Shown here one piece after another: positions 41,628-53,545 of a stretch of 64,000 nt of DNA. The notes beneath the pieces are model-generated. The model worked only from the letters and a program-made list of their open reading frames with translations, did no database searches and was not told where the DNA came from. Within the stretch, counting starts at the first letter, position 1; every line of letters starts with the position of its first letter. Source of the DNA: Escherichia coli (GTDB lineage: Bacteria; Pseudomonadota; Gammaproteobacteria; Enterobacterales; Enterobacteriaceae); the NCBI RefSeq assembly GCF_048403405.1, contig NZ_CP183129.1. One strand, written 5' to 3'. The position numbers were made by a program, and so were the translations under genes.

Positions 41628-43088
<1,461 letters not shown>

Positions 43089-43105
43089 TTACAGGAAATA
43101 GTACC

Positions 43106-43417
43106 ATGCAGCCAAACGACATCACTTTTTTTCAACGTTTCCAGGATGACATTCTGGCTGGGCGTAAAACCATCACCATCCGCGACGAGTCTGAATCGCA
43201 CTTCAAAACGGGTGATGTGCTTCGTGTCGGGCGTTTTGAAGATGACGGTTATTTTTGCACGATTGAAGTCACCGCAACCTCAACCGTAACGCTGGATACA
43301 CTGACGGAAAAACATGCAGAGCAGGAAAATATGACCCTGACTGAACTGAAAAAGGTCATTGCCGACATCTATCCCGGTCAGACACAGTTTTATGTGATTG
43401 AATTTAAATGTCTTTAA
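43106..43417 (+). CDS. yqfB: ASCH-domain protein YqfB (recalled as N4-acetylcytidine amidohydrolase), 103 aa
   Basis: 103 aa [51 protein letters not shown]... Confidence 0.85.
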
Positions 43418-43577
43418 ATTGAACTCACACCTGTTAGTTGAAATTTTGCATTTAATTTCATGATTTTTCGGAGATTAGTCCCAAATCAGAATTTATTTTA
43501 GCTAACAGGTGTTCACTGGAACTATTCTCAGTTACGCTGGAGAGGTTTACACGTGCGTGTACGTTTCTCCGGAGTAA

Positions 43578-44240
<663 letters not shown>

Positions 44241-44276
44241 TGGGTGTGCCTTTGTAGGCCTGAAAAGACACACCCG

Positions 44277-44310
44277 CGTCGCATCAGGCGATAAATGCCT
44301 GATGCGACAC
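44277..44310. repeat. REP-like palindromic element between convergent yqfA and ygfZ
   Basis: GCGTCGCATCAGGCG-ataaat-GCCTGATGCGACAC, REP-type imperfect palindrome; preceded by hairpin GGGTGTG...CACACCC (44242-44275). Confidence 0.5.
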
Positions 44311-44316
44311 AGAGAT

Positions 44317-45297
44317 TTACTCTTCGAGCGAATACGGCAGCGGCTCGATACGCAATGTATTCGCATCGTCACGCACGCGGAAGATGCTGTCCGGTTCCAT
44401 ATCGTTATTCATAACGACCTGTACCACGACCTGACCATCTTCCAGTTTGACCGCAGCCAGCACCGTACCGGTACGACGCCAGTTCTCGCCCATTTTCAGC
44501 TCTAAGTCTTCACCGGCTTCCGGCAGTCGGCTGGCGCTACCCGTCAGCAACCAGAGCGCGCGTTTGTTGGCACCACGGAATTTAGCTCGCGCCACCATCT
44601 CTTGTCCGGTATAGCAGCCTTTTTTAAAGCTAATGCCGCCCAGCGCCTGGAGGTTGGTCGCCTGTGGGATAAACTGCCCGCTGTTGGCGGCATCAATCAC
44701 CGGGAAACCCGCTTCAATGTTTAATGCCAGCCACTGTTGGCTATTGTTCAGTTCCGCTTCACCGCGCAGTTTATCGGTCAGCATATTGGCAGTGGCTTCA
44801 TCGGTTACGATCAGGAAACGTTCTGCAGGGTGTTCAAACCATAGCAAAGTGGTCGCGCCTTCTTTAACTACCTGTTTTTCTTTCGAAGGCAGTTCACTAA
44901 AGATATTTGCCAGCGCGGCGCGCGCCTGAAAACCGGCAACACCAAGCAGCACACGCTCGTCGTCTGGCGCGATGATCACTTTAGAGAATACCGCATATTT
45001 TTTCAGTTCAGTCAGCTGCGATTCACGCACGCTGCGCCGTTCAATCCATGCAAAGCCATCGCCGTCGCGGAACAGACGTAAATTGCTCCACATTTTACCT
45101 TTGGCGTCGCAATGGGCGGCGAGCAGGTGCTGATCTTCTGTCATCTGGCTGACATCTGCTGTCACCTGACCCTGCATATATTTTTCGCTGTCCGCGCCAG
45201 TAATGGTGGCAAGCGCCCAGTCATCAAGCGTCATCAGCGTCAGCGGTAAACGGGCAGAAGCCGTAGGCTGACGGGGAGGAAAAGGTGTAAAAGCCAT
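44317..45297 (-). CDS. ygfZ: folate-binding Fe-S cluster repair/assembly protein YgfZ, 326 aa
   Basis: 326 aa [49 protein letters not shown]... Confidence 0.9.
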
Positions 45298-52998: not shown

Positions 52999-53545
52999 AA
53001 TTGTGCTGCGCGAAAGCAGACAACAATTTTCTTGCTTCACTATTGGCTGCCTGCATCACCATCCACGGACTGAACGCCCACGGCGTGGCATCAATACCGC
53101 GTAATACATCTGCTAAATCACACCATTGATAATCCATCACTTCATCATCGTTGATCTGTAATGCACTGGTCGTGCGTGCGGCAAATACCGGACACACTTC
53201 ATTTTCCACAATGCCATTCGGATCGGTGGCGCGATAGCGAAAGTCAGGATAGATAGATTCAGGAGGCGTAATTTCCACGCCAAGCTCATAACGGCAACGG
53301 CGGATCACCGCGTCTTCGTTGCTTTCTCCCTGTTGTGGGTGCCCACAAACCGAGTTAGTCCACACGCCAGGCCATGCTTTTTTGCTCAGTGTGCGGCGGG
53401 TAACTAATAATTGCCCCTTGGCATTAAACAGCCAACTGGAGAACGCGAGATGTAAGAGGGTGTCTGCCGTGTGTGCGGCATACTTTTCCAGCGTACCCGT
53501 GGGAACTCCCTGTGCATTCAATAAAATGACGTGTTCCGTTTGCAT
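52997..53545 (-). CDS. idi: isopentenyl-diphosphate delta-isomerase (Nudix), 182 aa
   Basis: 182 aa [51 protein letters not shown]... Confidence 0.9.

Follow-up and report, generated by a model that had tools for sequence, protein, structure and literature searches.

The inverted repeat between yqfB and trhA of Escherichia coli: probably a pair of FabR-type operator boxes rather than an RNA element

In Escherichia coli the 163-nt intergenic spacer between yqfB and trhA contains a perfect 11-nt inverted repeat, and the question raised by this locus is whether the two arms pair with each other in a transcript or serve as protein-binding sites in DNA. The first-pass annotation of the window, the 64-kb stretch of E. 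coli DNA analysed here, had allowed for both, listing a terminator or small RNA of yqfB, a 5′-UTR element of yqfA and a pair of protein-binding sites as candidate roles. The analysis favours the last of these: we put the probability that the arms of the repeat belong to two FabR-type operator boxes in the trhA regulatory region, and do not form an RNA element, at roughly 60%. The genes and the arms of the repeat are the following.

yqfB, 43106-43417, plus strand: N4-acetylcytidine amidohydrolase, the upstream gene (open reading frame and annotation)
trhA (formerly yqfA), 43581-44240, plus strand: PAQR-family membrane homeostasis protein, the regulated gene (open reading frame, annotation and PMC9017321)
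5′ arm ACACCTGTTAG, 43427-43437: perfect 11/11 match with the 3′ arm
3′ arm CTAACAGGTGT, 43502-43512: separated from the 5′ arm by a 64-nt spacer

The neighbouring genes on the minus strand are bglA on the upstream side and ygfZ on the downstream side. The 11/11 repeat ACACCTGTTAG / CTAACAGGTGT noted earlier was confirmed, with the 3′ arm at the position given for it; the 5′ arm lies one base further to the left, and the spacer is 64 nt instead of the ca. 63 nt estimated. The inner repeat TGAAATT / AATTTCA, claimed to lie within the loop, is also present (43439-43445 and 43454-43460, with an 8-nt loop), and there is indeed no T-run 3′ of position 43512. If mismatches are allowed, the repeat grows to 18 nt with 89% complementarity (43427-43444 / 43495-43512). 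Perfect inverted repeats with arms of 11 nt or more and a spacer no longer than 100 nt occur eight times in the 64-kb window, compared to 1.2 ± 0.8 times in first-order Markov shuffles. One such repeat anywhere in the window is unremarkable; inside a 163-nt intergenic region it is not expected.

The 3′ arm belongs to known biology, as it lies in the published FabR operator by which trhA is coupled to unsaturated fatty-acid synthesis. FabR (YijC) belongs to the TetR family of repressors, and unsaturated acyl thioesters enhance its binding. Its site in trhA is at the promoter, and it represses this gene as well as fabA and fabB; the trhA box is the third established FabR target of E. coli (PMC4804515, PMC9017321). 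As cited in these two papers, the inclusion of yqfA/trhA in the FabR regulon was based on phylogenetic footprinting and binding studies. Direct repression of yqfA by FabR was found in Salmonella by ChIP and transcriptomics (PMC4804515), and mutation of fabR in Klebsiella derepresses yqfA (PMC11481535). In E. coli, a 3-nt mutation of the trhA FabR box gave higher expression and loss of control by both FabR and oleate, and the position of the box relative to the mapped trhA transcription start fits repression (PMC9017321). The mutagenesis primer used in that study corresponds to positions 43487-43522 of the window and converts ACA to GTG at 43505-43507, within the 3′ arm. That the 3′ arm is a FabR operator can thus be regarded as virtually certain, and on this side the earlier proposal of protein-binding sites coincides with a validated FabR box core.

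Proximal box O1 AGCTAACAGGTGTTCACT, 43500-43517, no strand assigned: FabR operator of the trhA/yqfA promoter, including the 3′ arm 43502-43512

O1 conforms to the 18-bp imperfect-palindrome consensus AGCkwACAnnTGTwnrCT of the fabA/fabB type; it is identical to the K-12 fabA box AGCGTACACGTGTTAGCT at 13 of 18 positions (counted by hand) and resembles the K-12 fabB box GGCGTACAAGTGTACGCT. The ACAnnTGT core within an AGC...CT frame occurs in 79 of the 80 Enterobacterales species whose loci were retrieved with TrhA, and in the same proportion (79/80) the box is kept together with about 30 nt of flanking sequence on each side. The ACA core is invariant over the 79 proximal boxes and the fabA and fabB boxes. 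With a symmetrised FabR position weight matrix (PWM), derived from 32 unique orthologous boxes together with those of fabA and fabB, O1 scores 24.9 and ranks first among the 63,983 positions of the window, a result that is not fully independent since the matrix was trained mostly on trhA proximal boxes. The second-best match in the window, AGCGTACCCGTGGGAACT at 53490-53507 (score 9.5), has no ACAnnTGT core.

The 5′ arm is found in a second sequence that resembles a FabR box, the centre of which lies 78 bp upstream of that of O1 in this strain.

Distal box O2 AACTCACACCTGTTAGTT, 43422-43439, plus strand: FabR-like box including the 5′ arm 43427-43437, candidate auxiliary operator
Single-nucleotide polymorphism, 43429: A in this strain and G in most E. 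coli, changing ACG to ACA

O2 ranks third among the 63,983 window positions. The allele of this strain has a PWM score of 10.6 (p = 3.8e-5, from 262,234 background 18-mers), and the K-12 allele scores 5.4 (p = 2.2e-4, same background), or 0.6 in the window PWM scan. The two halves differ in quality: the right half matches the FabR consensus well, whereas the left flank is degenerate. The perfect 11/11 match exists because of the G-to-A substitution at 43429, and it is a minority allele in E. coli: A is found in 145 of 5,426 complete genomes (2.7%), whereas G (ACGCCTGTTAG) is found in at least 5,106 of them (ca. 94%), including K-12, LF82 and O157-type strains. E. albertii also has G at the equivalent position.

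Across species, the distal box shows a distinct pattern of constraint. In an alignment of 39 species, the columns A, C, purine, T, G, T and then G at position 16 of O2 are invariant or nearly so, with a mean identity of 0.93 for the core columns and 0.50 for the central dinucleotide; the flanking and inter-site columns are near saturation, with an identity of about 0.56. A fixed core around a free centre is what the FabR core ACAnnTGT (PMC4804515) and the protein contacts would lead one to expect. The footprint AC[A/G]nnTGTnnG was found in 36 of the 80 Enterobacterales species, in a single orientation and with the main core 75-78 bp further downstream, against a chance expectation of 0.023 per region, and the O2-O1 spacing is almost free of indels across the 39 aligned species. 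Core Enterobacteriaceae thus share the place of O2, its orientation and its contact-type positions. Bonferroni-significant PWM matches in the distal zone occur in 26 of 79 species, all of them at 75-78 or 65-66 bp. Some distal boxes are near consensus, for example TGCGTACACCTGTTAGTT in Kluyvera, which is identical to the fabA box at 15 of 18 positions (counted by hand), and AGAGAACACCTGTTAGTT in Yokenella; that of Enterobacter wuhouensis is near consensus too. In 16 of the 39 aligned species the left core reads ACG instead of ACA.

The distal box is not linked to the upstream gene. yqfB adjoins trhA in just 33 of the 80 species. In Superficieibacter, Enterobacter and Phytobacter it is absent, yet O2 keeps its distance from O1; the distal box goes with trhA, not with yqfB. 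Loci with an altered context upstream of trhA include L004, L012, L024, L026, L029 and L033, among others, and in several Enterobacter, Superficieibacter and Phytobacter genomes a divergent gene for an RpiR-like regulator takes the place of yqfB while the trhA regulatory layout is kept. A smaller class of loci (L035, L040, L051, L052, L057, L058 and L062) has a second FabR-like box at 64-66 bp amid unrelated upstream DNA, for example AGCTTACGGCTGTACTCA in L051. Nothing was found between the two spacing classes, 75-78 bp (36 species) and 64-66 bp; they are about 11 bp apart, i.e. one helical turn, and this suggests that both boxes have to lie on the same face of the helix, although the classes comprise few independent lineages. 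The symmetry of the main box does not depend on the presence of its distal partner, as in species without O2 it is no more symmetric than in the others (6.02 vs 6.00, p = 0.98). Motif discovery on the Salmonella intergenic region led to a report of one site per target (PMC4804515), and O2 is not mentioned in the literature searched, a body of work to which the main binding study, Feng and Cronan 2011, does not belong. O2 may be a new element of trhA control. Judged from its sequence and conservation, we rate the chance that the 5′ arm is a functional auxiliary site for FabR at somewhat less than even, and we refer to it as a putative site; to this extent the conserved FabR-like box around the 5′ arm also agrees with the protein-binding alternative of the first-pass annotation.

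A competing explanation is that the arms pair in RNA, so that read-through transcripts or the 3′-UTR of yqfB would carry a stem-loop acting as 3′-end stabiliser, processing site or attenuator between the two genes. Folding of both strands, which had been suggested together with this idea, gave stable structures (-30.8 kcal/mol, z -4.7 for the plus strand; -24.4 kcal/mol, z -3.3 for the minus strand). Orthologous regions also fold well, with a median z of -3.6 and both cores paired in the minimum free energy structure of 36 of 39 species, and the commonest substitutions in the distal arm (A/G opposite U, C/U opposite G) are compatible with wobble pairing on the plus strand. Furthermore, no intrinsic terminator is recognisable behind yqfB, which makes read-through plausible. 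However, the FabR operator is a near-palindrome and any two copies of it are mutual inverted repeats, so that complementarity of the arms arises automatically and the low folding energies of the region follow from pairing of the two copies; we therefore rejected low z-scores as evidence for an RNA structure. Conservation of pairing and covariation, proposed earlier as a check, do not support a helix either: over the 39 species the 11-bp helix with the inner hairpin is paired in 72.7% of cases, compared to 72.5% in shuffles, with covariation values of 0.084 and 0.085, and the extended 18-bp helix in 85.0% compared to 84.8%, a control of low power, as the 3′ arm hardly varies. More telling are the positions that are free of operator constraint. 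The pairs of the central dinucleotide form in 21 and 23 of the 39 species (54-59%) and are broken in 16-18 of 39, which is the random expectation for a base opposite G or U.

Other observations point in the same direction. The inner palindrome, noted at first as nested in the loop, is found in Escherichia only and pairs in 49.8% of cells across the 39 species; it is probably incidental. Searching Rfam at a permissive E-value gave sub-threshold chance matches only, none near a gathering score. No terminator-like site was detected in the region 43000-43700, and the repeat itself has a 64-nt loop and no T-run: it resembles intrinsic terminators and 3′-UTR stem-loops in being an inverted repeat directly after a stop codon, but differs in loop length and in the absence of a T-tract and of a GC-rich, short-loop stem. 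For K-12 positions 3043100-3043399, the Term-seq tables of Adams et al. 2021 contain no 3′ end. Moreover, the 3′ arm lies within promoter DNA upstream of the trhA transcription start, and the distal element is kept where no co-directional gene is located upstream. Pairing of the arms in RNA is thus quite improbable as their function, and very likely the repeat does not function as an RNA helix at all; the terminator, small RNA and 5′-UTR interpretations found no support.

inner palindrome TGAAATT-N8-AATTTCA, 43439-43460, no strand assigned: Escherichia only

Two further explanations accept the proximal operator and concern the distal element only. The latter could be functional and yet unrelated to FabR, as the target of another protein or as a second upstream promoter, with a coincidental likeness to a FabR box. 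A -35-like TTGAAA is indeed present at 43438-43443, the ACG core is found in many species including most E. coli, the conserved TGAAA flank and TGATTT block fall outside the FabR 18-mer, and in K-12 O1 is sufficient to explain all the FabR regulation that has been measured. Against this stands the pattern of conservation: the conserved AC-purine, TGT and G16 correspond to the FabR core, while the variable positions are its free central dinucleotide, and near-consensus FabR boxes occur at exactly this position in several genera. The consensus scan also gave no sigma-70 promoter here. FadR, Cra, CRP, TyrR, ArgR and PhoP were considered as alternative ligands of the distal box and rejected, as comparison by eye with their consensus sequences gave no better or convincing match. 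We consider a distal element for something other than FabR unlikely. Still less probable is that the distal arm has no function and that its resemblance to a FabR box arose by chance and was sharpened by one substitution in this lineage. The rarity of the perfect match among E. coli genomes (2.7%), the poor scores of the K-12 allele (0.6 and 5.4) and the ca. 1.2 repeats of this kind expected per 64 kb would agree with such an origin, but not the near-invariant core columns in 39 species from more than 10 genera next to flanks of ca. 0.56 identity, the constant spacing of 75-78 bp, in which indels are all but absent, or the recurrence of the element in unrelated upstream contexts.

If the repeat is indeed a pair of FabR-type boxes, O2 would be a weaker and asymmetric box of which the 5′ arm is the better half; it would face the same side of the helix as O1 and act as an auxiliary operator. 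Bound FabR at O2 would raise the occupancy at O1, either by cooperative binding or through a small DNA loop. The FabR reporter of PMC9017321 includes O2, its primer starting at 43325. Mutation of O1 alone abolishes all FabR control in this K-12 reporter, from which it follows that O2 is at most auxiliary. The frequent ACG left core and the degenerate flank of the left half-site also argue against an auxiliary role. To our knowledge, dimers of TetR-family proteins are not classic loop formers.

The DNA around and between the boxes contains several conserved blocks that bear on this arrangement.

block TAATTTCATGATT, 43453-43465, minus strand: between the boxes, similar to the reverse complement of the IHF consensus WATCAANNNNTTR, candidate bend site
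A/T tract TTTATTTT, 43490-43499, plus strand: directly 5′ of O1
promoter-proximal block GGAACTATTCTCAGTTACGCT, 43518-43538, plus strand: consensus CTGgAAtcATTCTCaGTTA..cTag across 80 species
-10 candidates TATTCT, 43523-43528, and TACGCT, 43533-43538, plus strand: within block GGAACTATTCTCAGTTACGCT

The first of these blocks, TAAnnnn[T/A]TGATw, resembles the IHF consensus WATCAANNNNTTR and keeps a constant place, 51-52 bp on the 5′ side of the O1 core. With at most one mismatch to this consensus it is present in 36 of the 39 species, nine of them without mismatch, compared to 12% (perfect 0.7%) in shuffles; the E. coli block has one mismatch. A possible DNA-bending site would thus be located between the boxes, and a bend at this block may aid formation of an O2-O1 loop. 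The complete model, in which a weak same-face O2 at 77 or 66 bp and an IHF-type bend allow FabR to form a tight repression loop on two operators, with A or G at 43429 tuning trhA repression between E. coli lineages, we hold to be rather doubtful. The A/T tract has a mean identity of 0.84 across the 80 species and is also conserved in those without a distal box. Since a consensus scan of 43000-43700 gave no strong sigma-70 match, the trhA promoter hexamers listed above stay candidates; searches of the Cappable-seq and Kim 2012 supplements gave nothing for this locus. A third FabR box at 43544 (GGTTTACACGTGCGTGTA) was considered and rejected in view of its PWM score of -4.3.

Two other features of the spacer were noted. 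A small open frame ATG...TAG (MIFRRLVPNQNLF, 43460-43501) spans the inter-box region and stops inside the FabR box; no Shine-Dalgarno sequence was seen by eye, its length is not kept in Citrobacter, and it is probably a chance frame in AT-rich DNA. The 5′-UTR of trhA contains an imperfect inverted repeat (43532-43577, 22 nt, 73% complementary) with GGAGAG...TTCTCC adjoining the Shine-Dalgarno sequence GGAG. As RNAalifold gave no consensus structure for it over 39 species, this repeat seems confined to Escherichia.

Similar to O1, the FabR operators of fabA and fabB are 18-bp imperfect palindromes with an ACAnnTGT core; they respond to the same repressor and belong to the same regulon, and their frame is AGC...GCT. 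The right half-site of O1 is TGTTCACT, compared to TGTTAGCT or TGTACGCT in the fabA/fabB operators. In O2 the good half is the right one, TGTTAGyT, and it is reverse-complementary to the good left half of O1, AGCTAACA, which accounts for the match between the two arms. In fabA and fabB the FabR box is located directly 3′ of a sequence that we take to be the FadR activator site. Unlike these promoters, trhA has no FadR-like site that could be recognised by eye and possesses a second FabR-like box 78 bp upstream. A related regulator is DesT of Pseudomonas aeruginosa, a FabR-type TetR protein that controls desCB and fabAB. Its operator, like that of FabR, is a palindrome read by a TetR-family repressor that senses fatty acyl thioesters and serves unsaturated fatty-acid homeostasis, but both the organism and the operator sequence are different.

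In its layout the trhA region has similarities to looping systems with a main and an auxiliary operator, such as lac O1/O3, gal OE/OI with HU, ara O2/I1 and deo. Common features are a strong operator at the promoter with a weaker site of the same type tens of bp upstream, a conserved spacing, which for trhA falls into classes one helical turn apart (ca. 77 vs 66 bp), and a possible site for an architectural protein between the operators. There are also differences: for the trhA pair, looping and cooperativity are a prediction from sequence, FabR as a TetR-family protein is not known to form higher-order oligomers, and a loop of 78 bp would be very tight unless a bending protein takes part.

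Binding of FabR to O2, if it occurs, could help to explain two earlier observations. According to PMC4804515, citing Feng and Cronan 2011, FabR shows 'complex binding' and flanking DNA is important; an additional box could contribute to both. According to PMC9017321, trhA is repressed no less effectively than fabB although its main operator is less canonical, and an occupied O2 could be part of the reason why O1 gives fabB-like repression. The trhA promoter would then also illustrate how a TetR-family regulator can act through an auxiliary operator. At the K-12 fabB locus (L082) a FabR-like sequence GGGAAACAGGTGTACCCT with a PWM score of 10.1 was found 157 bp upstream of the fabB FabR box. It is the next-best match in 3.5 kb, a marginal result with about 0.14 such matches expected by chance, and a possible hint that other FabR targets, too, have auxiliary sites.

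For genome scans, the locus illustrates that two copies of a palindromic operator can mimic a stable long-range RNA helix, with z-scores that are strongly negative and even 'conserved'. Two observations were made further downstream in the window. The tables of Adams et al. 2021 list a position of strong signal antisense to yqfA (K-12 3042772 (+), corresponding to ca. 43957 of the window, minus strand), which is probably the Rho-dependent end of read-through from ygfZ. Between trhA and ygfZ lies another inverted repeat, GTCGCATCAGGC / GCCTGATGCGAC (44278-44308, in the region 44257-44333); this region has a sub-threshold Rfam match to naRNA4, and the repeat looks like a REP element.
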